NCBI RefSeq assembly: GCF_900232105.1
Contig: NZ_LT934425.1
Coordinates: 2,640,001 to 2,672,000 of the forward strand
Direction of reading: 5' to 3'
Source: Candidatus Kuenenia stuttgartensis
GTDB taxonomy: Bacteria; Planctomycetota; Brocadiia; Brocadiales; Brocadiaceae
DNA length: 32,000 bases
Below, piece by piece: positions 1,941 through 18,807 of this stretch. A program made the position numbers and the translations under genes. Position 1 is the stretch's first letter, and each line of letters opens with the position of its first letter. The notes under the pieces were generated by a model. The model did no database searches and was not told where the DNA came from. It saw only the letters and a list, made by a program, of their open reading frames with translations.

Positions 1941-2378
1941 CTACCCTCTTATGCACAAGACGGGGCAAGGGGCATTTCTTATCACATTCTCTGTCACGCT
2001 GCCAATAAACATATGAGAAATGCCCGTACGGCCGTGAGTACCCATAACTATAAGATCTACCCCCACATCGCGGGCTGCTTTTAAAATCTCTTCGAAAGGA
2101 ACACCCGCTCTCATCAGTATTTCAACATTTATACGATGCCTTATTTCTTCAGGAATACTGCTCCTCAATTTCTGTTCTATCTCTGCATCCGTTTCCGCAG
2201 TACGGTTTAACTCAGCGTCAAATTTAAGCCCGCCATAATCAGAGGTATGCTCTTCATGGACATGCATAAGATAAAGCACGGCAGAGTCCTTTATTGCCAA
2301 TTTCTCCGCATATGCAAGCGCATTCATGGAACAATCTGAATAATCTATGGGACAAAGAATTTTCTGATAGTGAATCAT
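1941..2378 (-). CDS. Universal stress protein (UspA family)
   Basis: 145 aa. The C-terminal nucleotide-binding motif G-x2-G-x9-G-S reads GTHGRTGISHMFIGSV. The start lies 16 nt downstream of the antiporter stop on the same strand. Confidence 0.85.
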   Translation of the reverse strand: MIHYQKILCPIDYSDCSMNALAYAEKLAIKDSAVLYLMHVHEEHTSDYGGLKFDAELNRTAETDAEIEQKLRSSIPEEIRHRINVEILMRAGVPFEEILKAARDVGVDLIVMGTHGRTGISHMFIGSVTENVIRNAPCPVLCIRG

Positions 2379-2394
2379 TTTTATCTCGGAGTAT

Positions 2395-5300
2395 TCAGTT
2401 TAACACTGCCCCTTCTAATTCCTTTTTTCTTTTAGTAACAGGAAGAATCTCAGGTGAACAGCCTTTCTTTAGCAAGATGTTTCTTAAAAGAGAGGGGCAT
2501 ATGATGGAAGTAAATACAATTGCCATAATAACAGAAGAAAATACCGTATCACTTAACATTCCCATATCCCTGCCAAGTCCTGCCAGAATTAATGTCCCCT
2601 CCATCTTTGTCGCCATCCCTATGCCTATGGCCAGACGGTTTATACCTTTCTCAATCGGGCAAACGCTGCAAAACATCTTTCCGATAACGGCAGCGCCTGT
2701 TATGGCAAGGCCGAGGAGGAGGGCATTTAGATTGAAAAAACTCCCCAGTTCTACCTGCGCCCCCACCCGAACAAAAAGTATCGGTACAAGGAGCATATAA
2801 AATGGTCTTATAAACGATTCAACATTACGATGCTCCTTATCATCAGAGTTCCTTAGCTTCACATTCCGCAGGAATAAGCCTGCAACAAATGCGCCTATTA
2901 CCGTGTGGAGTCCTACAGACCCAAACATAAAGACTAATAAAAGTGATAAAATTACCACTATGGGTATATTTAAACCCTCCGTAAGCCTTTTCGTGAGAAA
3001 ATTCCCAAACTTATCACCATATTTTACGATAACAATCAAACTGATTATCAGAGAAGTGATTGCTACGCCAAAGCTGAGGGACATACCTACGAGAGAACCT
3101 CCTCCTTTTACAACAAATCCACTTACTACACCGAAGGTTAAAATTACAATAATATCGGTAAGAATAGTAGCACCGGCCATTACCCTTCCTTCCAGGGTAT
3201 TTATTGCCTTTAATTCGCTCAAAACCGCAAGTAATAATCCGGTACTCGAATTACAAAGAACGATTGCCAAAAGAAGTTTCGTGCCGCTTGAGATATCCGG
3301 AAGGAGAAAATGCCCAACCATAAGTCCCAGTCCTGCAGGGGCTATTATACCGCCCAAACATACCAGGAGAGAAGATGTTCCTACCCGTAATAATGCCCTG
3401 AGGTCTGTATTGAGACCAGCGGTAAAAAGAAGTATCAACGTTCCAAAGTATGATATCATCTTTACGAATGGCATAGTCCTGAGAAAATCGAAAAAATCCC
3501 ATCCGGTAAAGGTGATGACGTTACCCAGTATCATTCCCACTATCAGCTTTCCTACTACAGCAGGAAGCCGCAACCTCCTTGCCAGCCATTCTGCTATCTT
3601 GGCGGCGATAAGTATTATGGCGACGGCAAGGATTACCGCATGGGTTGGATCTTTATGCCATATCTCCCAGCCATTACCTGAATCTTTCCCTTTTTTCACT
3701 GCGGCTATGCGGCGTTCTCCTGAAGCTATTACCGTTGTGGATTCACCAGCATCCTTTCTCGGCGGTTCCGTATCTCTATCTTCCTTCCCCTGTAAAAAAC
3801 CTTCAAGAGGCGTAGAAGGCAACCTCTCCACGGAGGCATTTGGGGAGGACTTACTTCCTCCATAAGGCGACGGCTCCTCCTTTTCTCCTGTAATCAGTGA
3901 TTCTTCCACGTCAACGGATGCAGCGGAATATGTCGGCGTAGGTGCAGGCGCAGGCGTGTCGGAGAGGACACTTTTTTCTTCTGTATCTCTGTGATTTTCC
4001 GTAAGAATACTATGCTGCGGCGGAACTTCCCCTATTGATGATTCATCTCTTGTATGCTCTTCTGTTCCATGAGGAGTTTCGTTTTCAATAGGAATCGCCT
4101 GAGATAATTCTCCTTCCGGCGATGGCGTGTGGATTTCTCTTTCTTCCTCAATCAAAGATTGCCCATGGACAGTGGGTGTAACAGGTAGAATCGGCATTGG
4201 TGTAACAAGTGTATTATCTTGTGCCGTGGTATCCGAAAGTGCCTCTTTTGCAAGAATATCAGTATCGCTGCGACTCCCTGTAGTGATGGCATGCTGTGGC
4301 GGAACCTCTTTTATTGATGATTCTTCTTCAGGATGCTCTTCTGTTCCATGAGGAGTTTCGTTTTCAATAGGAATCGCCTGAGATAATTCTCCTTCCGGCG
4401 ATGGCGTGTGGATTTCCCTTTCTTCCTCAATCAAAGATTGCCCATGGACAGTGGGTGTAACAGGTAGAATCGGCATTGGTGTAACAAGTGTATTATCTTG
4501 TGCCGTGGTATCCGAAAGTGCCTCTTTTGCAAGAATATCAGTATCGCTGCGACTCCCTGTAGTGATGGCATGCTGTGGCGGAACCTCTTTTATTGATGAT
4601 TCTTCTTCAGGATGCTCTTCTGTTCCATGAGGAGTTTCGTTTTCAATAGGAATCGCCTGAGATAATTCTCCTTCCGGCGATGGCGTGTGGATTTCCCTTT
4701 CTTCCTCAATCAAAGATTGCTCATGGCCAGTGGGTGTAACAGGCAGAATAGGCATTGGTGTAGCAATGGTATTATCTTGTGCTGTGGTATCCGAAAGTGC
4801 CTCTTTTGCAAGAATATCAGTATCGCTGCGACTTTCTGTAGTGATGGCATGCTGTGGTGGAACCTCTTTTATTGATGATTCTTCTCCGGGATGCTCTTCT
4901 GTTGCATGAGGATCTCTTCTCGCAATAGGAATGGCCTGAGATAATTCTCCTTCTGGCGATGGTGTATGGATTTCTTTTTCTTCTTCAACCAAAGATTGCC
5001 CATAACCAGTGGGTGTAACAGAGGGAATCGGTGTTGGCGTAGCTACAATATTATCTCGCCCTGTGGTATCCGAAAGCGCCTCTTCTGCGTGAACAATCGG
5101 CCGGTCATCTTTATTGGTGTGTGCTATTTTCTGCGAATACTTATTTTCTGCATGTTCAGAAGTATAGGGTTCTTCTTTTTCAGTTGTGATAACATCGCTA
5201 TTACTATTCGGCGTCTGAATACCGACGTCTCTCATATCAACCGTTGTGGGGGATGGGTGTTCTATAACAGGCGTTTGAATGGGTTGATTGTCCCCAGCAA

Positions 5301-5487
5301 TAGTTTGTGTCCCATTTTCTTCTACTGCTAAAGAAACCCTTTCTTTTTGAGTGTCGGCATGAATTGGTTGTGAATCGTTGGAAGGTTCCAAATGCTTCGC
5401 TTCCAACACTGGCGCACCTAACATATCGGTACAATACAGGGAGATGAATACTATCAGAAAAACCAGGCTGGATTTGTAGCTACTCAT
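2395..5487 (-). CDS. Cation:proton antiporter (CPA2/Kef-type Na_H_Exchanger membrane domain) with a signal peptide and a ~575-aa acidic repeat ectodomain
   Basis: 1030 aa. The N-terminus MSSYKSSLVFLIVFISLYCTDMLGAP looks like a signal peptide. Residues ~30-606 are E/D/T/P/H-rich with four 93-aa repeats. Residues 607-1030 (DNA 2395-3669) are polytopic and open with the typical exchanger start ...ILAVAIILIAAKIAEWLARRLRLPAVVGKLIVGMILGN. There is no C-terminal RCK/KTN domain. Confidence 0.85.
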   Translation of the reverse strand: MSSYKSSLVFLIVFISLYCTDMLGAPVLEAKHLEPSNDSQPIHADTQKERVSLAVEENGTQTIAGDNQPIQTPVIEHPSPTTVDMRDVGIQTPNSNSDVITTEKEEPYTSEHAENKYSQKIAHTNKDDRPIVHAEEALSDTTGRDNIVATPTPIPSVTPTGYGQSLVEEEKEIHTPSPEGELSQAIPIARRDPHATEEHPGEESSIKEVPPQHAITTESRSDTDILAKEALSDTTAQDNTIATPMPILPVTPTGHEQSLIEEEREIHTPSPEGELSQAIPIENETPHGTEEHPEEESSIKEVPPQHAITTGSRSDTDILAKEALSDTTAQDNTLVTPMPILPVTPTVHGQSLIEEEREIHTPSPEGELSQAIPIENETPHGTEEHPEEESSIKEVPPQHAITTGSRSDTDILAKEALSDTTAQDNTLVTPMPILPVTPTVHGQSLIEEEREIHTPSPEGELSQAIPIENETPHGTEEHTRDESSIGEVPPQHSILTENHRDTEEKSVLSDTPAPAPTPTYSAASVDVEESLITGEKEEPSPYGGSKSSPNASVERLPSTPLEGFLQGKEDRDTEPPRKDAGESTTVIASGERRIAAVKKGKDSGNGWEIWHKDPTHAVILAVAIILIAAKIAEWLARRLRLPAVVGKLIVGMILGNVITFTGWDFFDFLRTMPFVKMISYFGTLILLFTAGLNTDLRALLRVGTSSLLVCLGGIIAPAGLGLMVGHFLLPDISSGTKLLLAIVLCNSSTGLLLAVLSELKAINTLEGRVMAGATILTDIIVILTFGVVSGFVVKGGGSLVGMSLSFGVAITSLIISLIVIVKYGDKFGNFLTKRLTEGLNIPIVVILSLLLVFMFGSVGLHTVIGAFVAGLFLRNVKLRNSDDKEHRNVESFIRPFYMLLVPILFVRVGAQVELGSFFNLNALLLGLAITGAAVIGKMFCSVCPIEKGINRLAIGIGMATKMEGTLILAGLGRDMGMLSDTVFSSVIMAIVFTSIICPSLLRNILLKKGCSPEILPVTKRKKELEGAVLN
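3967..5082 (-). repeat. In-frame tandem repeat, 4 x 279 bp (93 aa), inside the antiporter ectodomain
   Basis: The unit is EALSDTTAQDNTLVTPMPILPVTPTVHGQSLIEEEREIHTPSPEGELSQAIPIENETPHGTEEHPEEESSIKEVPPQHAITTGSRSDTDILAK. Antisense shadow ORFs at 4127, 4406 and 4685 sit exactly 279 nt apart, and two of them have identical 74-aa translations. The outer copies are more diverged. Confidence 0.9.
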
Positions 5488-5748
5488 GAAAGCATTGTGG
5501 GCTAGAGAACTTTCTGCGAGGATAGAATTAAGAACAACAGAATCAATATATTTACATTATAAAACAGGAAACATCTTAAATACAGAAAAAGTTTCGCAAG
5601 GGTTCAATATATTTTTAATTGGGGTATTTACCTGAATTTGTTAAGTATTGCTAAATATTTTAATGATTTTGTGTTTTATGCCCTTGATAAATTAATTTTA
5701 GATGATTATACTATGTCTCATTTCTTTGTTGGAAGGGGGTATTATTTC

Positions 5749-5901
5749 TTACGATTTAACTTTCGTTAAAACCTTTTGACTTTTATCAAATGTCGTCGGT
5801 TCTATTTGTGTTGCCTTTTGAAGAAGCCGGTAGAAAAGCTTGCCGCGATATTTCGAGGTTATCCGGTTGAATCTAAACGTATACTCAAAATAATACAATC
5901 C
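5749..5901 (-). pseudogene. Possible C-terminal remnant of an IS1595-family (ISXO2-like) transposase
   Basis: A 50-codon open frame reads GLYYFEYTFRFNRITSKYRGKLFYRLLQKATQIEPTTFDKSQKVLTKVKS. The E(F/Y)xFR(F/Y)NRR....R..LF..LL pattern matches my memory of the IS1595-family C-terminus. There is no upstream DDE domain. It sits at the junction between the two duplicated modules. Confidence 0.35.
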
Positions 5902-5938
5902 TCAATCTGCAATTTGCCGACTGTAGATTACTGACAGC
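5890..5938 (+). repeat. Degenerate heptamer tandem array (AATCTGC-like)
   Basis: The register reads ATAATAC|AATCCTC|AATCTGC|AATTTGC|CGACTGT|AGATTAC|TGACAGC, ending just before the USP2 stop at 5940. The same heptamer family occurs at 12653-12710 (opposite strand) and 25372-25413. Confidence 0.5.
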
Positions 5939-5939
5939 C

Positions 5940-6378
5940 TTACCCCCTTATGCACAATACAGGACAAGGGGCGTTTCTTATCACCTTCTCTGCCACACTA
6001 CCAATAAACATATGGGAAATGCCCGTACGGCCGTGAGTACCCATAACTATAAGATCTATCCCAATATCTCTGGCTGCTTTTAAAATCCCTTCACAGGTGT
6101 CCCCCGCCCTCATCAATATTTCAATATTTATACAGCACCTTATTTCTTCTGGAATACTGCTAATAAATTTCTGTTCTATCTCTGCATCCGTTTCCTCGGT
6201 ACGGTTTAACTCCGTGTCAAATTTAAGCCCGCCATAATCAGAGGCATGTTCTTCCTTTACATAAATAAGATAAAGGCCTGGCAGTTTCCCTTGTTGCCAA
6301 TTTTGCCGCATATGCAAGCGCATTCATGGCACAATTTAAATAATCAACGGGACAAAGGATTTTCCGATAGTGAATCAT
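5940..6378 (-). pseudogene. Universal stress protein paralog with an apparent +1 frameshift
   Basis: The reverse strand from the ATG at 6378 gives MIHYRKILCPVDYLNCAMNALAYAAKLA..., parallel to USP1 MIHYQKILCPIDYSDCSMNALAYAEKLA. The rest (LYLIYVKEEHASDYGG...GTHGRTGISHMFIGSV) is in another frame (ORF 5940-6323). The span is 439 nt versus 438 nt in copy 1. The extra base lies within 6276-6295 (20 nt versus 19 nt in copy 1). Confidence 0.7.
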
Positions 6379-6380
6379 TT

Positions 6381-8879
6381 TTACCCCTGTGTATTCAGTT
6401 TAACGCAGCCCTTTTTAATTCCTTCTTCTGCTTTTGCAACAGAGACGATGTCTTGTGCGTCGCCCTTCTTCTGCAGGAATGCCCTTAAAAAATAAGGACA
6501 TATGATAGAGGTAAGCACGATTACCATAATAGCAGAGGAAAATACGGCGCTGTTAAATATTTCCATATCTCTGCCTATTCCTGCAAGTATTAGAGTCCCT
6601 TCCATCTTTATCGCCATACCTATGCCTATAGTCAAACGATTTACTCCGCGCTCAATCGGGCAAACGCTGCAAAACATCTTTCCTGCAATAGCGGCACCCG
6701 TTATAGCAAGTCCGAGGATCGCTGTATTTACATGTAAAAAACTCATTAGATCAACCTGCGCCCCCACTTTAACAAAAAGTATTGGCACTATAATCTTATA
6801 AAATGGCCTTATAAAAGATTCAATAGTACGATATTCTTCTTCGTCGAATTCGTCGGAATCACTTAGTTTTACATTCCGCAGGAATAACCCTGCAACAAAT
6901 GCCCCTATTACTGTATGAAGCCCAATTGTTCCAGTCATAAAGGCTAACAAGAGGCACAAAACTATTACAATAGGAATATTTAATCCCTCTTTAGCTCTTT
7001 TCGTTAAAAAGCTGCCGAATTTTTCGCTATATCTCAAAATAATTACTAACGCAATGGTAAGGAAAGAAATTGCGATACACACGCTAACTAAAATATGCAG
7101 GAAAGAATTCCCTTCACGAGCGACAAATCCGCTAACGAGGCCGAAGGATAAAATAACCATGATCTCTGTAAGAACGCCGGCACCGATGAGTATCCTTCCT
7201 TCCAGGGTATTCATAGCCTTTAATTCGCCTAAAATTGCCGTTAATAATCCCATTCCTGTACTGGCCAAAATAATTGCTAAAAGCATCTTTGTACCATTTG
7301 AGGCATCAGGAAGGAAGAAATGCCCTGCCACAAGACCCAGTCCGGCAGGGACGATAATACCGCCCATGCACACCAGTAAAGAGGAAGCCCCTGCCCGTAA
7401 TAACATCCTGATATCGGTATGAAGCCCTGCGGTAAAGAGAAGTATCAACGTTCCAAAATATGATATCATCTTTAAAAAGGGCATTGTCTTGAGAAATTCG
7501 AAAAAATCCCCTCCGGTAAAGATATAGATATTGCCTAACACTAGTCCTGCCAATAGATTACCCACTACCGAAGGCAACTGAACGTTTTTTGCCAGCAATT
7601 CTCCTATCTTGGCAGCAATAAGTATTATGGCGATGGCAAGGATCACACTATGGGATGGATCTTTGTGCAATATATCCCAGGCAGGCCTTGAAACTCCCTC
7701 TTCTTTCACAGTGTCTAAGCGGTGTTCTTCTGAAGCTATTCCTGTTGTTGATTCATCGGTATCCTTTGTTGGCAGTCCAGCATCTCTCTCTTCATTCACC
7801 TGAGAAGAACCTTCAATATGCGTAAACGGCAACAACTCCAAGGGGATAGTTGGCGCTCCGCGTTCTACATCATGCGATGGCTTATCCTTTTCTATCGGAA
7901 CCAGTGATTCTTCTGTGTGAGCGGATGCAGCAGGATATTCCGGAGTTGGAACAGGCATGGCGGAGATGGCGCCTTTTTCTTCAGCATCTCCCGGAGTCGC
8001 TGTAATTATAGCATGCTGCGGCTCAATTTCCTCTATCGATGACTCATCTCCGGGATGCTCTTCTGTTCCATGAGGAGTTTCGTTTTCAATAGGAATCGCC
8101 TGAGATAATTCTACTTCCGGAGATGGCGTGTGGATTTCCCTTTCTTCCTCAATCAAAGACTGCCCATGGACAGTGGGTGTAACAGGTAGAATCGGCATTG
8201 GTGTAACAAGTGTATTATCTTGTGCCGTGGTATCCGAAAGTGCCTCTTCTGCAAGAATATCAGTATCGCTGCGACTCTCTGTAGTGATGGCATGCTGTGG
8301 CGGAACCTCTTTTATCGATGATTCTTCTTCAAGATGCTCTTCTGTTGCATGCGGAGCGCTTATCTCAATAGGAATAGCCTGAGATAATTCTCCCTCTGGC
8401 GATGGTGTTGGTGTATGGATTTCCTTTTCTTTTTCAACCAAAGAGTGCCCATAGCCCGTAGGTATAACAGAGAGAATCGGTGTTGGCGTAGCCATGATAT
8501 TATCTTGCTCTGTGGTATCCGAAAGCGCCTCTTCTGTGGGAACAATCGGCCGGTCATCTTCATTGGGGTGTGCTATTTTCTGCGGATACTTATTTTCTTC
8601 ATGTTCAGAAATAATATAAGGTTCTTCTTTTTCTGTTATGATATTGTTGCTATTACTATCCGGCGTTTGAATGGGCTTATTGCCCCCTGCAGTAGTCTGT
8701 GTACCATTTTCTTCTACCGTTAAAGAATCTCTTTCTTTTTGAGTGTCGATATGGATCGATTGTGAATCATTGGAAGGTTCCAAATGCTTCGCTTCTAATT
8801 CCGGCGTACCTAACATAATAACACAGAACAGGGATATGAAAACTATAAGAAAAGCCAGGCTGGATTTGTAGCTACTCAT
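6381..8879 (-). CDS. Paralogous cation:proton antiporter (CPA2/Kef-type) with a signal peptide and a shorter acidic repeat ectodomain
   Basis: 832 aa with the same architecture as 2395-5487. It has the signal peptide MSSYKSSLAFLIVFISLFCVIMLG, an ectodomain with two repeat units, and a 432-aa membrane domain. By my hand count 71 of the first 100 aligned membrane-domain residues match copy 1. Confidence 0.85.
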   Translation of the reverse strand: MSSYKSSLAFLIVFISLFCVIMLGTPELEAKHLEPSNDSQSIHIDTQKERDSLTVEENGTQTTAGGNKPIQTPDSNSNNIITEKEEPYIISEHEENKYPQKIAHPNEDDRPIVPTEEALSDTTEQDNIMATPTPILSVIPTGYGHSLVEKEKEIHTPTPSPEGELSQAIPIEISAPHATEEHLEEESSIKEVPPQHAITTESRSDTDILAEEALSDTTAQDNTLVTPMPILPVTPTVHGQSLIEEEREIHTPSPEVELSQAIPIENETPHGTEEHPGDESSIEEIEPQHAIITATPGDAEEKGAISAMPVPTPEYPAASAHTEESLVPIEKDKPSHDVERGAPTIPLELLPFTHIEGSSQVNEERDAGLPTKDTDESTTGIASEEHRLDTVKEEGVSRPAWDILHKDPSHSVILAIAIILIAAKIGELLAKNVQLPSVVGNLLAGLVLGNIYIFTGGDFFEFLKTMPFLKMISYFGTLILLFTAGLHTDIRMLLRAGASSLLVCMGGIIVPAGLGLVAGHFFLPDASNGTKMLLAIILASTGMGLLTAILGELKAMNTLEGRILIGAGVLTEIMVILSFGLVSGFVAREGNSFLHILVSVCIAISFLTIALVIILRYSEKFGSFLTKRAKEGLNIPIVIVLCLLLAFMTGTIGLHTVIGAFVAGLFLRNVKLSDSDEFDEEEYRTIESFIRPFYKIIVPILFVKVGAQVDLMSFLHVNTAILGLAITGAAIAGKMFCSVCPIERGVNRLTIGIGMAIKMEGTLILAGIGRDMEIFNSAVFSSAIMVIVLTSIICPYFLRAFLQKKGDAQDIVSVAKAEEGIKKGCVKLNTQG
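7968..8531 (-). repeat. In-frame tandem repeat, 2 units (95 + 93 aa), homologous to the 279-bp repeat of the paralog
   Basis: Unit 2 (EALSDTTAQDNTLVTPMPILPVTPTVHGQSLIEEEREIHTPSPEVELSQAIPIENETPHGTEEHP...) matches unit 3 of the paralog at 64 of 65 residues. The antisense ORF at 8128 shares its first 40 aa with those at 4127 and 4406. Confidence 0.85.
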
Positions 8880-9033
8880 AAAAGCATTATAGGCGAAAAA
8901 ACTTTCTGCATGGATAGAATTAAGAACAACAGCGTCAATATATTTGCATTATAAAACAGGAAACATCTTAAATACAGAAAAAGTTTAGCAAGGGTTCAAT
9001 ATATTTTTAATTGGGGTATTTACCTGAATTTGT

Positions 9034-9160
9034 GTAACTATTCAGCGTAAACGATACACGGCTCGTTCCCAAACCTTGTACTGAACATAGTGAAGTATCT
9101 GTTTGGGAACGAGTTGCGCTCTTATCTCCGGTAGTTTAATAAATTACACTGAATAGTTAC
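9034..9160. mobile_element. 127-bp MITE (family 2) with 12-bp terminal inverted repeats and an 8-bp target-site duplication
   Basis: The termini are GTAACTATTCAG (9034-9045) and CTGAATAGTTAC (9149-9160). GAATTTGT flanks it at 9026-9033 and 9161-9168. The paralogous upstream region at 5628-5650 reads ...CCTGAATTTGTTAAGTATTGC with one GAATTTGT and no insert, so it is an empty site. There is an internal hairpin CGTTCCCAAAC...GTTTGGGAACG. Confidence 0.8.
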
Positions 9161-9302
9161 GAATTTGTTAAGTATTGCTAAATATTTTAATGATTTTGTG
9201 TTTTATGCCCTTGATAAATTGATTTTAGATGATTATACTATGTCTCATTTCTTTGTTGGAAAGGGGTATTATTTCTTACTGTTTAACTTTCGTTAAAACT
9301 TT

Positions 9303-9330
9303 TTGACTTTTTCATAAATAGTTCTATAAT
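9303..9330 (+). promoter_or_regulatory. Sigma70-type promoter candidate for nuoA
   Basis: TTGACT (9303-9308), a 16-nt spacer, then TATAAT (9325-9330). The nuoA ATG is at 9340, only 9 nt after the -10 box, which implies a leaderless or near-leaderless transcript. Confidence 0.55.
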
Positions 9331-12759: not shown

Positions 12760-14610
12760 ATGGTTCTTGACGAAAGGTCTGAAGGTTCAAAAGTGGATGC
12801 AATGCCCGCCAGGGCCAGGATAATTGTTGGCATGGGAACATGTGGCATTGGCGCTGGCGCGAGGGGGGTATTAAAAAGTATCGAAAGCGAACTTGCCAAA
12901 CAACAGATTCAGGCGGATATTGTTCATACAGGGTGCATTGGTTTATGTTCCTATGAAGTACTTGTTGATATAATAATCCCTGGCCGTACCAGGGTAACGT
13001 ATAAAAATGTGAAGCCGCAGACCGTCCCTCTGTTATTGGAGGAACACGTAAGAAAAGGGGAAATTGTTAAAAACCATGTATTGTCTCAAATGGTTGCGGA
13101 AGAGGGGTGCGAAGAGCCATATCCGCTAGTTCCTTTTTTTGATGAACTGATCATTAATAGACCGCAGCGCAAGCAGATTTTGAGGAATTGCGGCTACATT
13201 GACCCTGATAGCATTGAGGAATATATTGCCCGCGGCGGGTATGAAGCCCTTAAAAAAGTACTAAAGACAATGAGTCCGGAGCAGGTGATTGAGGAAGTGT
13301 CTAAGTCAGGTTTGAGAGGAAGAGGGGGCGGTGGGTTTTCTACCGGCAATAAGTGGGCGTCGTGTGCAAAATATTCTACCGATGAAAAGTTTGTTATCTG
13401 TAATGCTGACGAGGGCGACCCTGGTGCATTTATGGACAGAAGTCTACTGGAGGGTGACCCGCACGCAGTCCTTGAGGGCATGATTATTGGCGGATACGCC
13501 ATTGGCGCAACCAGTGGTTACATATATATCCGTGCGGAATATCCTCTGGCGGTTAGAAGGATTAAGCATACTATTGAGCAGGCAGGAAAATATGGGTTTT
13601 TGGGTGAGAATATTTTGGGCAGCGGATACAGCTTAAATATTTACATAAAGGAAGGCGCAGGTGCTTTTGTCTGCGGAGAGTCCACGGCATTACAATATTC
13701 AATAGAAGGCAAGCGGGGAATGCCGCGCACAAGGCCCCCTCAATCTGTAGAGGCGGGACTGTGGGATAAGCCAACTGTGTTAAATAATGTGGAAACCTTT
13801 GCGAATGTCCCTCTTGTAATGAATAAGGGGGCAGGTTGGTATGCTCAGATGGGAACAGACAAAAGCAAAGGTACGAAGATATTTTCATTAACGGGGAAAA
13901 TAAAACATCCGGGCCTTGTAGAAGTTCCCATGGGCACAACTATCCGGCAAATCGTATTTGATATAGGAGGGGGGATTCCCAGGAAAAGACGGTTTAAAGC
14001 CGTTCAGATTGGAGGGCCTTCCGGCGGTTGTTTGCCTGAATCATTGCTGGATTTTCCTATCGACTACGAATCATTATTGGAAATTGGCGCGATGATGGGT
14101 TCAGGTAGTTTTGTAGTGGTGGATGACGGCACCTGTATGGTGGAAATGGCTCGCTTTTTTATGGATTTTTGCGCACGGGAATCATGCGGAAAATGTCCTC
14201 CATGCAGAATAGGCACAACCCTTATGCTTGATATACTTACGCGGATTACTCAGGGAATGGGTGAAGAGGGCGATATTGCAATGCTTGAAGAGATGTGCGG
14301 AGAGGTGAAGACCATGTCCCTTTGCGGTCTTGGGCAATCAGCGCCCAATCCAATCAAGTCCACTTTGCGGTATTTTAAAGACGAATATATCGCTCACATC
14401 AGAGACAAAATTTGCCCCACCGCCACATGTACGGCGTTGCACAGGTATGAGGTTATCCCCGATAAATGCACTAAATGCCAGGTCTGTATACGTAATTGTC
14501 CTGTCAAAGCAATCAGTGGCAGCAAGACGGAAGTTGCTTTTATTGATAAAGCAAAGTGTATTAAATGTAATGTGTGTTACGAAAAATGTAATTTCCTGGC
14601 AATAAAATGA
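12760..14610 (+). CDS. nuoF: NADH:quinone oxidoreductase subunit F, extended form (extra N-terminal thioredoxin-like ferredoxin-type domain and C-terminal 2x[4Fe-4S] ferredoxin domain)
   Basis: 616 aa. The core has GLRGRGGGGFSTGNKW (FMN/NADH) and ESCGKCPPCRIG (N3). The C-terminus has CTKCQVCIRNCP and CIKCNVCYEKC. The ~110-aa N-terminal extension contains GMGTCGIGAG ... TGCIGLCSYE. GAGGAG lies 10 nt before the ATG at 12760. An alternative ATG at 12802 is possible. Confidence 0.9.
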   Translation: MVLDERSEGSKVDAMPARARIIVGMGTCGIGAGARGVLKSIESELAKQQIQADIVHTGCIGLCSYEVLVDIIIPGRTRVTYKNVKPQTVPLLLEEHVRKGEIVKNHVLSQMVAEEGCEEPYPLVPFFDELIINRPQRKQILRNCGYIDPDSIEEYIARGGYEALKKVLKTMSPEQVIEEVSKSGLRGRGGGGFSTGNKWASCAKYSTDEKFVICNADEGDPGAFMDRSLLEGDPHAVLEGMIIGGYAIGATSGYIYIRAEYPLAVRRIKHTIEQAGKYGFLGENILGSGYSLNIYIKEGAGAFVCGESTALQYSIEGKRGMPRTRPPQSVEAGLWDKPTVLNNVETFANVPLVMNKGAGWYAQMGTDKSKGTKIFSLTGKIKHPGLVEVPMGTTIRQIVFDIGGGIPRKRRFKAVQIGGPSGGCLPESLLDFPIDYESLLEIGAMMGSGSFVVVDDGTCMVEMARFFMDFCARESCGKCPPCRIGTTLMLDILTRITQGMGEEGDIAMLEEMCGEVKTMSLCGLGQSAPNPIKSTLRYFKDEYIAHIRDKICPTATCTALHRYEVIPDKCTKCQVCIRNCPVKAISGSKTEVAFIDKAKCIKCNVCYEKCNFLAIK

Positions 14611-17279
14611 AAATTATCCATCTGACAATAGATGATAAATCAATCGTAGCGCCTGAAGGCACAAATATTTTTCAGGCGGCATTGGACAATAATATTTATA
14701 TTCCAGGCCTGTGCTACCATCCAAAACTATCCCAGTTTGGCGGATGCAGGCTTTGTTATGTTGAAGTTACTGAAAGGAATCAAACAAGACGCCGTTTCGC
14801 CTGTGCACATCCGGTATCCGAGGGGATGAGCGTAAAAGTAAATACAGCAGAAGTGAATCGCCATAGAAAAGCGGTAATGGAATACCTGCTTGCTCATCAT
14901 GAACTTGCCTGCCCCACCTGTAATAAATCCGGAGAATGCGGACTGCAAAATATTGCCCATGAACAGGAATCCCCTCTGGGAAGATTCAAGACGGCAAGGA
15001 TGTCTGCTCCGGTAATTCGGGATAATCCGGTTTTGGAATTAAACAGAAACCGGTGCGTTTTGTGCGGACGCTGTGTAAACGCCTGCAAGGAAATAGAGGG
15101 TGTTGGCGCCATAGACTTCCAGAACCGCGGGTTCAGAACGGTTATTGGAACCGCCTTTGACAGGCCATTGGATTGCAGTTTTTGCGGAGGGTGTCTGGCT
15201 GTGTGCCCGACAGGTGCTTGGCAGGACAGAACGCTGAAGTTCAGCGGCAGGTCGTGGGAATTCGAGGGTTTTCAGACAATTTGCCCATATTGTTCCGTTG
15301 GCTGCACAATTGTTTTAAATACAAAAAATGGAAGCGTCAGGCGCGTGCTTTCCGAAGATAAACTGGGAATAAATGAGGGAAATCTTTGTGTGAAGGGAAG
15401 GTTCGGGCATGAATTTATTCATTCCCCTGAACGAATAACCACCCCATTGATAAAAAAGAATGGTGAATTTCAGGCTGTCCGGTGGGAAGAGGCGATTGGG
15501 TTTGTGTCGGAGACGCTTGGACGAATTATTGAAAAACATGGCAGCAATACGATAGGCGGCATCGGTTCTGAAAAATGTACCAACGAGGAAGATTACCTTT
15601 TTCAGAAATTTTGCAGAACGGTACTGAGGACAAATTGTATTGACAACATAGCAAATATGAGGGCGCCATTCTTAAATAGCGTTTTATATAAATCAGTTGA
15701 AAGCGGGTTTGCAGCCGCTCCATTGAAGGAAATCGAAAATGCCGGCACCCTGTTCTTTTTTGGCGTGGATATTACCGAGGCACTTCCCGTCATAGGATGC
15801 ATGGCAAGGAAGGCAATAAAATTGAATAACGCAAATGTGGTGATCGCCAACCCGCGCACTATCATTTTTAAAAATACCGCCCCAAATGAAGCGCGACTAA
15901 ACTATTCTTTGGGAAGTCAGCATATATTGCTCAACGCAATAATCAAAGTTATTGTTGAGGATAAACTTGTTGATATTAAAAAGTTAGAGTCTTCGGCAAG
16001 TAATCTTAGCGATTTACGTTTAGCGGTAGAAAATCTTAGTTTAATTGATGTTGAACGATTGACGGGAGTTTCGCCTGAAATGATACGCAACGCTGCCGGA
16101 TTGCTGGCGAAACCGGGCAACTGTTGCATTGTTTACGGCAAAGACGTTATTGAAGACCCGCTTGGTGCGGATACCATAAAAACGCTGTTAGACCTTTGCA
16201 CATTGATTGATATTTCCAATCGTAGTGAAATTCATCCTGGCAGGGTGTCTCTTTTCTGTGCAAGATATCATAATAATTCGCAGGGGGTAAACGATATGGG
16301 AGTCGTTCCGGAATCATTACCCGGTTATCTTGATATAAACGATGCATCGAATAAGGAGAGAATTGAAGAATTGTGGGGCGTAAAATTTTCTGAAGATCTT
16401 TTATCAAAAAAACCCTTAAATCTGATTGACGCCGCAAAAAATGGGAGCATAAAATCGCTTTACGTAATGGGCGCAGATCCTGTCACGGAGTATCCGAACG
16501 GAAAAGAGATAAGAGATAGTTTTAAGAATATGGAATTTATTGTCGTTCAGGATTCATTTATGACGGAAACAGCAAAACAGGCAGATGTGATCTTCCCCTC
16601 TGCTACATTTGCCGAAAAAGAAGGTACTTATACCAGTATGGGATTGATCACGCAGCGATTAAACAAGGCTGTTTCACCTGTGGGTGAATCGAAGGCTGAT
16701 TGGAAAATTATCTGCGATGTATCAGAAAAAATGGGACATGCTTTCCCCTATGCGAATGTAACGGAAATTGTGGATGAAATAAAAAAGGCAGCCCCTCTTT
16801 ATTCATCCTTAAGTTATGACCGCCTGAAGCGAAAGGAATTTCACTGGCCTTCATCGTTTCCTGAAAAAAAAGAATCAAATACCTGCACGTTTTTTGCGAT
16901 TCAGGGTAAATTCCTGAAAGTGAATGTAGAAAAAGAATTTCCTTTCATCGTAATGACAGGTGCAAGCCTGAATCACCATGGCGCTTATTCAGCAAAATCA
17001 AGGGCATTGGTTTCGATTGCCCCTGAATGTTGTGTAGAAATAAACGAAAAAGACGCAAAGGATATGCAGATTAAAAATGGGGATATGGTTATGGTTGAGT
17101 CGCGGGTGGGAAAATTAAAACTGAGAGCAAGGGTAACAAAGAAATCTCCTCCGGGCATAGTTTTTGTGCCAGATGCATATGCAGACTCACCTGTTAATAT
17201 CTTGATATCTCAGGCATATACACCGGTGAAGATTTATACTGTTTCTGATTTGGTGTTACGCCTGAGCCAAGGTGAATAA
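14607..17279 (+). CDS. nuoG: NADH:quinone oxidoreductase subunit G
   Basis: 890 aa. It has a 2Fe-2S region CYHPKLSQFGGCRLC, then HHELACPTCNKSGEC, CVLCGRCVNAC and CSFCGGCLAVCP, then a molybdopterin-oxidoreductase-like domain starting CPYCSVGC. It has an ATGA overlap with nuoF. Confidence 0.93.
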   Translation: MKIIHLTIDDKSIVAPEGTNIFQAALDNNIYIPGLCYHPKLSQFGGCRLCYVEVTERNQTRRRFACAHPVSEGMSVKVNTAEVNRHRKAVMEYLLAHHELACPTCNKSGECGLQNIAHEQESPLGRFKTARMSAPVIRDNPVLELNRNRCVLCGRCVNACKEIEGVGAIDFQNRGFRTVIGTAFDRPLDCSFCGGCLAVCPTGAWQDRTLKFSGRSWEFEGFQTICPYCSVGCTIVLNTKNGSVRRVLSEDKLGINEGNLCVKGRFGHEFIHSPERITTPLIKKNGEFQAVRWEEAIGFVSETLGRIIEKHGSNTIGGIGSEKCTNEEDYLFQKFCRTVLRTNCIDNIANMRAPFLNSVLYKSVESGFAAAPLKEIENAGTLFFFGVDITEALPVIGCMARKAIKLNNANVVIANPRTIIFKNTAPNEARLNYSLGSQHILLNAIIKVIVEDKLVDIKKLESSASNLSDLRLAVENLSLIDVERLTGVSPEMIRNAAGLLAKPGNCCIVYGKDVIEDPLGADTIKTLLDLCTLIDISNRSEIHPGRVSLFCARYHNNSQGVNDMGVVPESLPGYLDINDASNKERIEELWGVKFSEDLLSKKPLNLIDAAKNGSIKSLYVMGADPVTEYPNGKEIRDSFKNMEFIVVQDSFMTETAKQADVIFPSATFAEKEGTYTSMGLITQRLNKAVSPVGESKADWKIICDVSEKMGHAFPYANVTEIVDEIKKAAPLYSSLSYDRLKRKEFHWPSSFPEKKESNTCTFFAIQGKFLKVNVEKEFPFIVMTGASLNHHGAYSAKSRALVSIAPECCVEINEKDAKDMQIKNGDMVMVESRVGKLKLRARVTKKSPPGIVFVPDAYADSPVNILISQAYTPVKIYTVSDLVLRLSQGE

Positions 17280-17766: not shown

Positions 17767-18105
17767 ATGGGAAAAACTAAAATTACTAATGAACAGAAGC
17801 CACAATTTGTTCAAGGTATGCCTTTGCTTAATATTTATATTATCAAAGATAACGGAAAATATATGGTTAAATGTCCGGAACTGGACATAGTAACCGAAAT
17901 GGATACCGCAGAACAAGCCTTAGATGCTATTTTAGAAATAATAAGAGAATATTCAGAAGATTACAGGAATCGTGAAGAAATATTTATCAAAAGCCCTAAT
18001 AGGTTCCATCATAAGCCTTATGTCGATAAGGTCCTTGAATGTAAAGATAAATGGGAACTATGCGAACTGATAACGGTTAAATATGGCCATATATACATAC
18101 GATGA
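17767..18105 (+). CDS. hicB: HicB-like antitoxin (N-terminal HicB/UPF0150-type domain)
   Basis: 112 aa. The segment YMVKCPELDIVTEMDTAEQALDAILEIIREY fits the HicB-like pattern (..cPeL.g..t.G.T.eEAl.n..eai..). It lies directly upstream of hicA. I see no clear RHH/HTH C-terminal domain. Confidence 0.55.
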   Translation: MGKTKITNEQKPQFVQGMPLLNIYIIKDNGKYMVKCPELDIVTEMDTAEQALDAILEIIREYSEDYRNREEIFIKSPNRFHHKPYVDKVLECKDKWELCELITVKYGHIYIR

Positions 18106-18313
18106 TATGCGGTTTGTACTTAAGAGATTGGGTTTTAATAAGATTAGAAGCCAAAAACATGAGACATGGGAAAGAATTACGGATGCGGGGACCGTATTAC
18201 AGGTAAGATTAAGCCACAAAGGTAAACGAGATATATCTAAAGGGACCTTTAATGAGATGTTAAAACAAGCAGGTATTGATAAAAAAATGTTCAGAGATTT
18301 ACTAAAAAAATAA
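18083..18313 (+). CDS. hicA: HicA-family mRNA interferase toxin
   Basis: The sequence ...MRFVLKRLGFNKIRSQKHETWERITDAGTVLQVRLSHKGKRDISKGTFNEMLKQAGIDKKMF fits the HicA/YcfA pattern. The ATG at 18107, one nt after the hicB stop, is an equally plausible start. Confidence 0.7.
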   Translation: MAIYTYDDMRFVLKRLGFNKIRSQKHETWERITDAGTVLQVRLSHKGKRDISKGTFNEMLKQAGIDKKMFRDLLKK

Positions 18314-18519: not shown

Positions 18520-18807
18520 ATGGCGAAAAAAGGACAAACGTTTTTCTGCGAGATATGCAAGCAAAAGGTTGTTGTTGTTGACGGAGGTTTTGGGGTGCTT
18601 GTATGTTGCGGCAAGGAAATGACCCTGGTTGGGAAGAAAGATATGATGTCTGTCTGGACGTCTGCGCATAAGTCTCCTGAGGAGGGAAGCGGGGTGCACT
18701 TTATCTGCGGAATATGCGGACAAAAGATAAATGTGATTTACGAAACGACTGGGATATTGGAATGTTGCGGACAAAGAATGATGATGGAAGAGGTTTCAAA
18801 TGGATAG
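18520..18807 (+). CDS. Tandem desulforedoxin-domain protein (two Cys4 rubredoxin-like metal sites)
   Basis: 95 aa with two copies of the desulforedoxin signature F/Y-x-C-x2-C-x-Q-x-V/I-x-V...G-x-L-x-CCG-x2-M: FFCEICKQKVVVVDGGFGVLVCCGKEM and FICGICGQKINVIYETTGILECCGQRM. For comparison, D. gigas Dx from memory is [27 protein letters not shown]. GAGG lies 9 nt before the ATG. The stop overlaps the nuoH ATG by 8 nt. Confidence 0.8.
   Translation: MAKKGQTFFCEICKQKVVVVDGGFGVLVCCGKEMTLVGKKDMMSVWTSAHKSPEEGSGVHFICGICGQKINVIYETTGILECCGQRMMMEEVSNG

Follow-up and report, generated by a model that had tools for sequence, protein, structure and literature searches.

Exchangers of the CPA2 family are textbook transporters that normally begin at their first membrane helix. 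Why, then, would two adjacent CPA2 genes of an anammox planctomycete place a signal peptide and several hundred acidic residues in front of that helix? The genes, here called KsA and KsB, lie in a 32,000-nucleotide stretch of the Candidatus Kuenenia stuttgartiensis genome (contig NZ_LT934425.1, positions 2,640,001 to 2,672,000; hereafter the window) under locus tags kustc0817-0821, and each is followed by the gene of a small universal stress protein (USP). We found that one bacterial order, the Brocadiales, attaches an exported, polyanionic and disordered domain (the head) to a CPA2 core, often together with a USP encoded in trans. What is new is the order-wide conservation of this acidic head on a known core, and its main interest lies in the sorting of proteins to the anammox organelle. 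Our reading, to which we give a little less than even confidence, is that these proteins are electroneutral K+/NH4+/Na+-H+ exchangers that bear a tethered polyanionic brush on the outer face and are regulated by a USP on the inner one. The features needed first are the following.

2395..5487, minus strand: KsA (kustc0818), 1030 aa; signal peptide, acidic disordered head and CPA2 core (from the list of open reading frames, ORFs)
5416..5487, minus strand: KsA signal peptide, aa 1-24, MSSYKSSLVFLIVFISLYCTDMLG, followed by AP; predicted cleavage site
3670..5415, minus strand: KsA ectodomain (head), aa 25-606
4012..5088, minus strand: tandem repeat array of KsA, 279-nt (93-aa) unit, 3.9 copies (TRF score 1739, 92% match)
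2395..3669, minus strand: KsA membrane core, aa 607-1030; NapA fold, 13 helices
6381..8879, minus strand: KsB (kustc0821), 832 aa; signal peptide aa 1-24, head aa 25-400, core aa 401-832
7968..8531, minus strand: KsB repeat units, aa 117-211 and 212-304 (anchor motif positions)
1941..2378, minus strand: USP-A (kustc0817), 145 aa, intact; ATP-binding-type universal stress protein

By inspection, the KsA N terminus has the features of a Sec-type signal peptide, for which a basic n-region, 10-15 residues of h-region and small residues at -3 and -1 are expected: Lys stands in the n-region, the Phe-rich h-region of 11-12 residues is too short to span a membrane, and Gly is at -1; cleavage itself is a prediction. 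Of 15 published predictors, 80% called a signal peptide for kustc0818, 93% for kustc0821 and 53% for kustc0812, a third protein described below (Medema et al. 2010, supplement). Orthologues from Kuenenia, Brocadia, Jettenia and Scalindua retain a signal peptide, which bears out the proposal of an earlier note, made from the DNA alone, that both large ORFs carry one. Its apparent lack in B. sinica is due to a truncated gene call. In one further orthologue, on a metagenome contig (L002), the signal peptide (4762-5004) and the remaining gene (5001-7199) lie in different frames, probably through an assembly frameshift. A lipoprotein signal was considered and rejected, as the residue preceding Cys19 is Y or F and does not form a lipobox.

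Downstream of the 24-residue signal peptide, the head extends over 582 aa in KsA and 376 aa in KsB, with net charges of -74 and -59, respectively. The KsA head is composed of 14% E, 11% T, 11% P, 9% S and 4.5% H, and it contains neither Cys nor Trp. A charge-hydropathy analysis puts it deep inside the unfolded zone, and an AlphaFold2 (AF2) model of the full-length protein shows no secondary structure for residues 24-608, with a head pLDDT of about 30; this run was shallow (21 sequences, mean pLDDT 41) and was used solely as supporting evidence on that point. The approximately 30 heads that we examined across the clade are all net negative (-0.04 to -0.16 charge per residue) despite sequences diverged beyond recognition, and none has a hydrophobic segment except for the signal peptide. 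The head is thus an intrinsically disordered, polyanionic, Thr/Ser/Pro-rich domain. It has no match in Pfam, NCBIfam or PDB, and an exhaustive phmmer search of the KsA head against 1.84 billion representative proteins returned three hits, all of them Kuenenia sequences, in line with the claim of the earlier note that the 93-aa unit matches no known domain.

These properties bear on two other explanations. An annotation artefact, with the true protein starting at the membrane core and the extension being an ORF of its own or not translated at all, could draw on several public gene calls that begin inside the head (P0011, P0024 and P0126). KsA, however, contains no Met between aa ~431 and the first core helices, every orthologue conserves the open frame and the repeat length is divisible by three; we regard such an artefact as extremely unlikely. 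Alternatively, the head might be a mucin-like, probably O-glycosylated spacer or tether that crosses the periplasm to peptidoglycan, S-layer or matrix, or that shields the transporter. Thr, Ser and Pro make up about 31% of a long and disordered head whose repeat number varies among strains, and the head type broadly tracks lineage rather than core type, as would be expected for a lineage-specific envelope partner. Yet the Pfam and NCBIfam profile searches revealed no recognisable wall-binding or anchoring motif, and what is conserved between lineages is a net negative charge, not a binding motif, which leaves a tether quite unlikely.

The earlier note described the ectodomain as built of 93-aa repeats, and this holds for part of it. 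In KsA the units begin at aa 136, 229, 322 and 415; KsB has two, starting at aa 117 and 212, which are linked to the KsA array at 75-91% identity (DNA repeat families D1-D3). In both proteins the units are flanked by a unique N-terminal segment of ~110 aa (KsA) or ~90 aa (KsB) and by a unique juxtamembrane segment of ~100 aa. Strain variants of 1030, 937 and 844 aa have 4, 3 and 2 units, and repeat number is therefore polymorphic. Tandem repeats were rejected as a family-wide feature: in TRF, the long in-frame array is restricted to K. stuttgartiensis KsA, and two other heads show minor repeats of about two copies of 27-34 nt. With 5 His and 15 Glu in each unit, the repeat could be a specific metal- or cation-binding antenna, an idea to which a weak similarity of the core to the model of the MagA iron transporter (NCBIfam NF045626) might be added; at 43.9 bits this similarity is far under the 700-bit equivalog cut-off, and MagA identity was rejected. 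The antenna is weakened because both the repeat and the His enrichment are specific to the Kuenenia head type, here termed K (4-4.5% His, against 0-4%, mostly ~2%, in other heads), and the third Kuenenia protein carries a head with 1% His on the same core. The His/Glu unit does not stand as a family feature, and we judge an antenna role very unlikely.

Regarding the membrane part, the Pfam Na_H_Exchanger profile (PF00999, gathering score 26.2 bits) matches KsA over aa 628-1005 (E 7e-45, 153.9 bits) and KsB over aa 423-803 (E 1e-42, 146.8 bits). Neither RCK/KTN (PF02254) nor any other domain was detected in either protein by the Pfam search, in agreement with the earlier note, and the protein ends ~22 aa past the last helix. 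The KsA core aligns to Thermus NapA (5BZ2/4BWZ) over NapA residues 7-374 (phmmer, E 7e-26). An AF2 model of the core from 83 homologues (pLDDT 89.5, pTM 0.86) has 13 helices and the NapA/NhaA-type fold with its crossed, unwound helices, and its best Foldseek neighbour is NapA 5BZ2 (E 4.8e-16, TM 0.76/0.85), followed by KefC 8BXG (TM 0.71). The topology is predicted to be N-out, with the head on the extracytoplasmic side as proposed earlier, because the first core helix aligns with NapA TM-1, whose N terminus is outside, because the model has 13 helices and because Lys and Arg together number 16 in the loops predicted to face inwards and 6 in those facing outwards. Scores against the NCBIfam CPA2 subfamily TIGR00932 are 115.5 and 110.9 bits (E 3e-33), under the curated cut-off of 238.3, and by this measure the clade is a divergent one within CPA2. 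The KefB/KefC equivalog models give 33-35 bits against cut-offs of 752-804, so that the proteins are not Kef by this test.

The KsA sequence is identical to SOH04952/WP_099325610, which NCBI labels 'cation:proton antiporter', and 99.8% identical to CAJ71563/Q1PWF7, labelled 'putative sodium/calcium/potassium exchanger NCKX1'. NCKX1 identity was rejected, since Pfam gives only PF00999 and no Na_Ca_ex domain; the name likely reflects low-complexity acidic similarity.

In order to compare the ion sites, columns were assigned to the CPA motif as defined by Masrati et al. (2018). KsA has N746-S747-S748-T749, T777-D778 and K937 (N-S-S-T ... T-D ... K), and KsB has S-T-G-M ... T-E ... K. The carboxylate at motif position 7 and the Lys at position 8 are kept (D778/K937 in KsA, Glu/Lys in KsB), as at NapA D157 and K305. 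At position 6, corresponding to NapA D156, the first Asp of the DD motif is gone and replaced by Thr, or by Ala or Ser in some orthologues. Brocadiales paralogues with a short extension or none retain DD, and therefore the long head and the loss of the first Asp go together. Asp or Glu at position 6 with Lys at position 8 is the criterion for electrogenic CPA2 of the NhaA, NapA and GerN clades, and the x-S-S-T pattern in the unwound helix is associated with K+ selectivity (Masrati et al. 2018). KsA and KsB both lack the DD motif with Lys of electrogenic CPA2, and if the published criteria can be extrapolated, exchange is probably electroneutral. The N-S-S-T of KsA, which is shared by the third protein, resembles the Kef-like pattern (L-S-S-T as the Kef K+-selectivity criterion), and by the same extrapolation would point to K+ or to the similar-sized NH4+; KsB, with T-G-M, probably differs in selectivity. 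The T-D/E site in place of DD defines an uncharacterised CPA2 subtype, in organisms whose substrate is NH4+.

Among known systems, Thermus thermophilus NapA (4BWZ, 5BZ2) shares the 13-helix fold, the outside N terminus and the conserved Asp/Glu and Lys; in contrast to the anammox proteins, it begins at TM-1 with neither signal peptide nor head, it has Asp and not Thr at position 156, and its unwound helix reads A-T-S-V instead of N-S-S-T or S-T-G-M. The glutathione-gated K+/H+ exchangers KefC and KefB of Escherichia coli (8BXG) have the CPA2 fold, a residue other than Asp at motif position 6 and the x-S-S-T pattern found in KsA, but the anammox proteins differ from them by the absence of KTN/RCK, by showing no sign of glutathione gating and by the N-terminal head.

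How widespread is the arrangement? Homologues were searched with the core alone, as a full-length query was swamped by low-complexity words (9 hits). All taxonomically labelled core hits at 48% identity or above are from Brocadiales (Kuenenia, Brocadia, Jettenia, Scalindua, Loosdrechtia, 'Wunengus' and 'Tripitaka'), and complete members of this clade have 170-680 aa of Glu/Thr/Ser/Pro-rich sequence before the core. The extended architecture thus forms a clade found only in Brocadiales genomes, with about 34 loci. In the next tier, at 41-46% identity, and in nearly all hits from outside Brocadiales, the protein starts at the first helix, apart from a few exceptions, and the N-terminal extension is, as the earlier note had supposed, rare among the non-Brocadiales relatives surveyed. 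Heads from Brocadia, Jettenia and Scalindua can be aligned with each other at 25-74%, and the Kuenenia K-type head is the outlier. In the searchable literature we found no description of an exported head on a CPA2 protein and no paper connecting Kuenenia, antiporters and USP; the tags kustc0815-0820 were not found in main texts. CPA2 has been listed as a core family in all anammox genomes in a 2026 paper that does not remark on the architecture. Separately, three deep-branching Brocadiales loci (L003 from Ca. Tripitaka californicus, L025 and L032) hold arrays of 3-4 consecutive CPA2 genes flanked by USPs. A USP comes first, then two or three short CPA2 genes whose sites are DD, D-A or fragmentary; a single long-headed CPA2 gene, lacking a signal peptide, stands next, and two USPs close the array.

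The rapid divergence of the heads raises the possibility that they are a weakly constrained, largely neutral low-complexity expansion that an exported N terminus tolerates, the repeats and mosaicism being products of slippage and recombination. Sequence turnover is very fast, to the point that the 1.84-billion-protein search detected no homology between Kuenenia and other heads, copy number varies, and in a related case, that of the plant exchanger KEA1, the extension is largely dispensable. On the other hand, more than 30 genomes from several genera keep an unbroken head ORF of 270-680 aa with a signal peptide and an unchanged sign of charge, and heads remain alignable across Brocadia, Jettenia and Scalindua; we judge a neutral origin very unlikely. 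KEA1 and KEA2 of the plastid inner envelope are the closest architectural analogue, with a CPA2 core behind a mostly disordered N-terminal extension. This extension is ~500 aa long, rich in charged residues, fast-evolving and faces the stroma, it contains a crystallographically confirmed coiled coil, and the proteins have a C-terminal KTN domain; according to a recent preprint, it sets KEA1/2 apart from all other CPA2 members. The anammox proteins lack the KEA1/2-type features of a coiled coil in the extension, stromal or cytoplasmic orientation and a C-terminal KTN domain: their head follows a signal peptide, shows no predicted helix (aa 24-608), is net negative and is placed N-out. The two extensions are of independent origin, and the anammox heads offer a second and genetically simpler case in which to study what such extensions do.

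The modules are not a simple tandem pair. A third module (C) consists of kustc0812 (750 aa; the protein is called KsC here) and a 145-aa USP on the same strand, just left of window coordinate 1 (L043 7732-10438; L045 12643-15349), and the locus is better described as a three-module cluster with domain-level mosaicism and non-equivalent copies than as the tandem duplication first proposed. The features concerned are listed below.

1942..3686, minus strand: tract shared with the third module, 97.8% DNA identity to kustc0812 and its USP (blastn)
5634..5784, minus strand: upstream element of KsA, non-coding, 97% identical to 9161-9311
9161..9311, minus strand: upstream element of KsB, copy of 5634-5784

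The KsC core is 97.8% identical to the KsA core, and the two USPs are identical at 144 of 145 positions. Its signal peptide and 326-aa head are unrelated to those of KsA and belong to the Jettenia/Scalindua type. At the DNA level (module A against C in L045), the 98% tract runs from KsA codon ~601 to exactly the USP-A stop, and its start lies six residues ahead of a conserved stretch, W-E-I-W-H-K-D-P-T-H, located before TM-1. Module A resembles module B elsewhere: DNA identity between the two is 97% in the upstream 151-nt element, 85% in the start region, about 90% in the repeats and 87% in the USP, and it falls to 67-73% in the membrane core. The KsA and KsB heads are 75-91% alike and their cores 67.7% identical, the KsA core being 86-87% identical to Brocadia orthologues. 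Given the near-identity with module C over core and USP, and the KsB-like upstream region and head, KsA is on sequence grounds a chimera of a KsB-type promoter, signal peptide and head with a KsC-type core and USP. Across genomes, the head types K, B and S assort semi-independently of core and ion-site types, which suggests recurrent recombination at the domain boundary, as judged from motif tables and a neighbour-joining tree without bootstrap that was used qualitatively.

This mosaicism is the main argument for another explanation, in which signal peptide and head form a swappable cassette for sorting or compartment adaptation, to the anammoxosome or to the cytoplasmic membrane. It would explain why one core bears two unrelated signal peptides and heads, why the swap junction falls exactly at the head/TM-1 boundary and why head type assorts independently of core and ion site. 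Anammox energy metabolism runs across an internal organelle membrane, and how these cells sort exported proteins to organelle and envelope is unsolved (Medema et al. 2010). The composition-based classifier of the same study assigns kustc0818 and kustc0821 to the anammoxosome set and kustc0812 to the cell-envelope set; it was trained on folded soluble proteins and not for disordered sequence, so that the split is out of its domain and a lead only. Moreover, heads without signal peptides occur in deep lineages, and all paralogues seen within Brocadia share one head type, which speaks against a two-address code there. We consider a cassette of this kind doubtful, and it is less likely again that the heads are compartment addresses or adaptors swapping the same CPA2 core and USP between anammoxosome and cytoplasmic membranes. 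If they were, KsA (K-type head) and KsC (S-type head) would be a natural experiment, and an anammoxosome K+/NH4+-H+ exchanger would tune the ΔpH/Δψ split of the organelle or its cation supply, as KEA3 does in thylakoids. Either way, near-identical cores with different heads in one genome provide a concrete pair to localise.

Returning to the exchanger with a brush and a cytoplasmic regulator, we asked how firmly the USP is tied to the core. The Pfam Usp profile covers USP-A in full (E 1e-35, 123.7 bits, profile 2-141), and the gene starts 16 nt past the KsA stop. A G-x2-G-x9-G-S nucleotide motif, GTHGRTGISHMFIGS, is present in both USPs (aa 113-127 in USP-A); it is characteristic of the MJ0577/UspFG class and predicts ATP binding. 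The second copy is split over two frames.

6241..6378, minus strand: USP-B N-terminal fragment, different frame, 46 codons then stop; translation MIHYRKILCPVDYLNCAMNALAYAAKLATRETARPLSYLCKGRTCL followed by the stop
5940..6323, minus strand: USP-B (kustc0820) C-terminal ORF, 127 aa, from the frameshifted USP

The USP-B ATG is at 6378, 2 nt past the KsB stop, and a +1 insertion near 6290 closes the frame after 46 codons. The N-terminal fragment matches USP-A residues 1-33 (phmmer), and the 127-aa ORF covers only Usp profile positions 33-141 but retains the nucleotide motif. Since the truncation recurs in at least six independent assemblies, including complete genomes, it is not a sequencing error but a real frameshift fixed in the species; an intact 145-aa version is present in a related Kuenenia. 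The earlier note had placed a USP directly behind each exchanger, which is correct for the spacing of both genes (16 and 2 nt) and for the integrity of USP-A, but not for that of USP-B.

Linkage in homologues, which the note took as a check on its reading, holds for about half of the loci. In ORF and phmmer maps, the extended exchanger gene is followed by a USP within ~20 nt at 15 of 33 loci (16 of 34 with kustc0812), and the linked loci span the deepest splits of the clade; in some DD-type paralogues the USP directly precedes the exchanger gene. The best 120 homologues of USP-A are all stand-alone Brocadiales USPs, ranked by similarity in parallel with the cores. The tract shared by modules A and C, which spans core and USP and ends at the USP stop codon, also counts for coupling between the two. 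The linkage is thus real and old, but not obligatory. A search for fused (Rosetta-stone) evidence gave none among these 120 closest homologues. More distant CPA2 relatives carry a fused C-terminal regulator, such as Usp (in P0103 only, PF00999 + PF00582), PTS_EIIA_2 or TrkA_N; they share a homologous core and, with Usp, the regulator class, but the anammox USP is a separate gene 2-16 nt downstream and is absent from about half of the clade loci. A stand-alone partner has a parallel in TeaD, the USP of the teaABCD operon, which codes for an ectoine TRAP transporter of Halomonas elongata; TeaD is an ATP-binding protein that acts on this transporter. The transporter class is different, and for the anammox pair a corresponding action of the USP is a proposal.

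Gene structure, fold, N-out orientation, disorder, clade distribution, operon linkage and mosaic evolution follow from the analyses above, and ion specificity, the brush and regulation by the USP are deduced from them. Each of the three clustered operons encodes a NapA-fold, 13-helix CPA2 cation/proton exchanger without a fused cytoplasmic regulatory domain, and in the mechanism that we propose a small ATP-binding-type USP would be co-transcribed with it. The Sec-type signal peptide would export a head of 300-580 residues to the periplasm or the anammoxosome lumen. The core would exchange a cation for H+ electroneutrally at a one-carboxylate site (T-D or T-E, with Lys). The tethered polyanion would lie as a brush over the outer funnel, attracting and buffering cations and protons, with a kinetic and not a thermodynamic effect; this electrostatic role is suggested because net negative charge density is the one property conserved in all heads. 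On the cytoplasmic face, the USP would bind as a nucleotide-dependent regulator in place of the RCK, EIIA or USP domains fused in relatives.

Several points weigh against this proposal. A generic electrostatic role does not explain why the nearly identical KsA and KsC cores (98%) bear unrelated heads in one genome, and a 1:1 exchanger gets no thermodynamic advantage from a Donnan layer. To our knowledge, the T-D/E motif has no characterised precedent, and ion specificity as well as electroneutrality are extrapolations. The USP cannot be obligatory, because about half of the extended loci have none adjacent and because the frameshifted USP-B stands beside an intact and transcribed KsB. Finally, in five deep-branching Brocadiales lineages with heads of ~300-400 aa, a signal peptide was found nowhere in the open frame; lineages without one include Tripitaka, JP1, nzgw511 and RIFCSPLOWO2_12_FULL_50_35. 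Export of the head therefore cannot be generalised to the entire clade, and this is the main caveat on topology.

Upstream of the modules, the element copied between KsA and KsB is 92% conserved before the orthologue of Kuenenia Bin40. A riboswitch or leader RNA was rejected for this 97%-identical element, since it gave no Rfam hit at the gathering score or at E<=1 and its fold is weaker than that of shuffled controls (z = +1.5). Promoter and terminator scans were at chance level. All four genes (kustc0817, 0818, 0820 and 0821) are transcribed at modest levels, and no significant response to ammonium or nitrite limitation is reported for KsA, USP-A and USP-B (Smeulders et al. 2020, supplement). 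In the KsB upstream region only, a 127-nt insertion resembling a miniature inverted-repeat transposable element (window 9034-9160) breaks sequence that is 92-97% identical to the KsA upstream region; its ends are 12-nt terminal inverted repeats GTAACTATTCAG, an 8-bp target duplication ACAAATTC flanks it (9026-9033 and 9161-9168), and its sequence forms a long hairpin (DNA z = -5.8).

Outside the modules, two neighbours lie towards the left end of the window. A predicted lipoprotein of 184 aa (497-1051; lipobox LLTGC), coiled-coil-like in sequence, sits between module A and the third module. Starting ~95 nt past the outer edge of module A, an 83-aa ORF (1596-1847) covers no more than positions 1-69 out of 183 in the DpnI/Dam-replacing family and is a truncated remnant.

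On the other side, nuoA (kustc0822) is found at window 9340; this tag and those of KsA and KsB were taken from the supplement of Medema et al. (2010). Within 12760-17279 are a NuoF-like protein (616 aa) with an additional C-terminal pair of 4Fe-4S motifs and a NuoG-like protein (890 aa) with complete molybdopterin-oxidoreductase domains. A toxin-antitoxin pair (17767-18313), in which a PHD_like antitoxin (112 aa) overlaps a HicA toxin (76 aa), is inserted in the complex I operon between the nuoG-like gene and nuoH. Directly upstream of nuoH and overlapping its start, a 95-aa ORF (18520-18807) carries two desulforedoxin-like (Desulfoferrod_N) Cys motifs.

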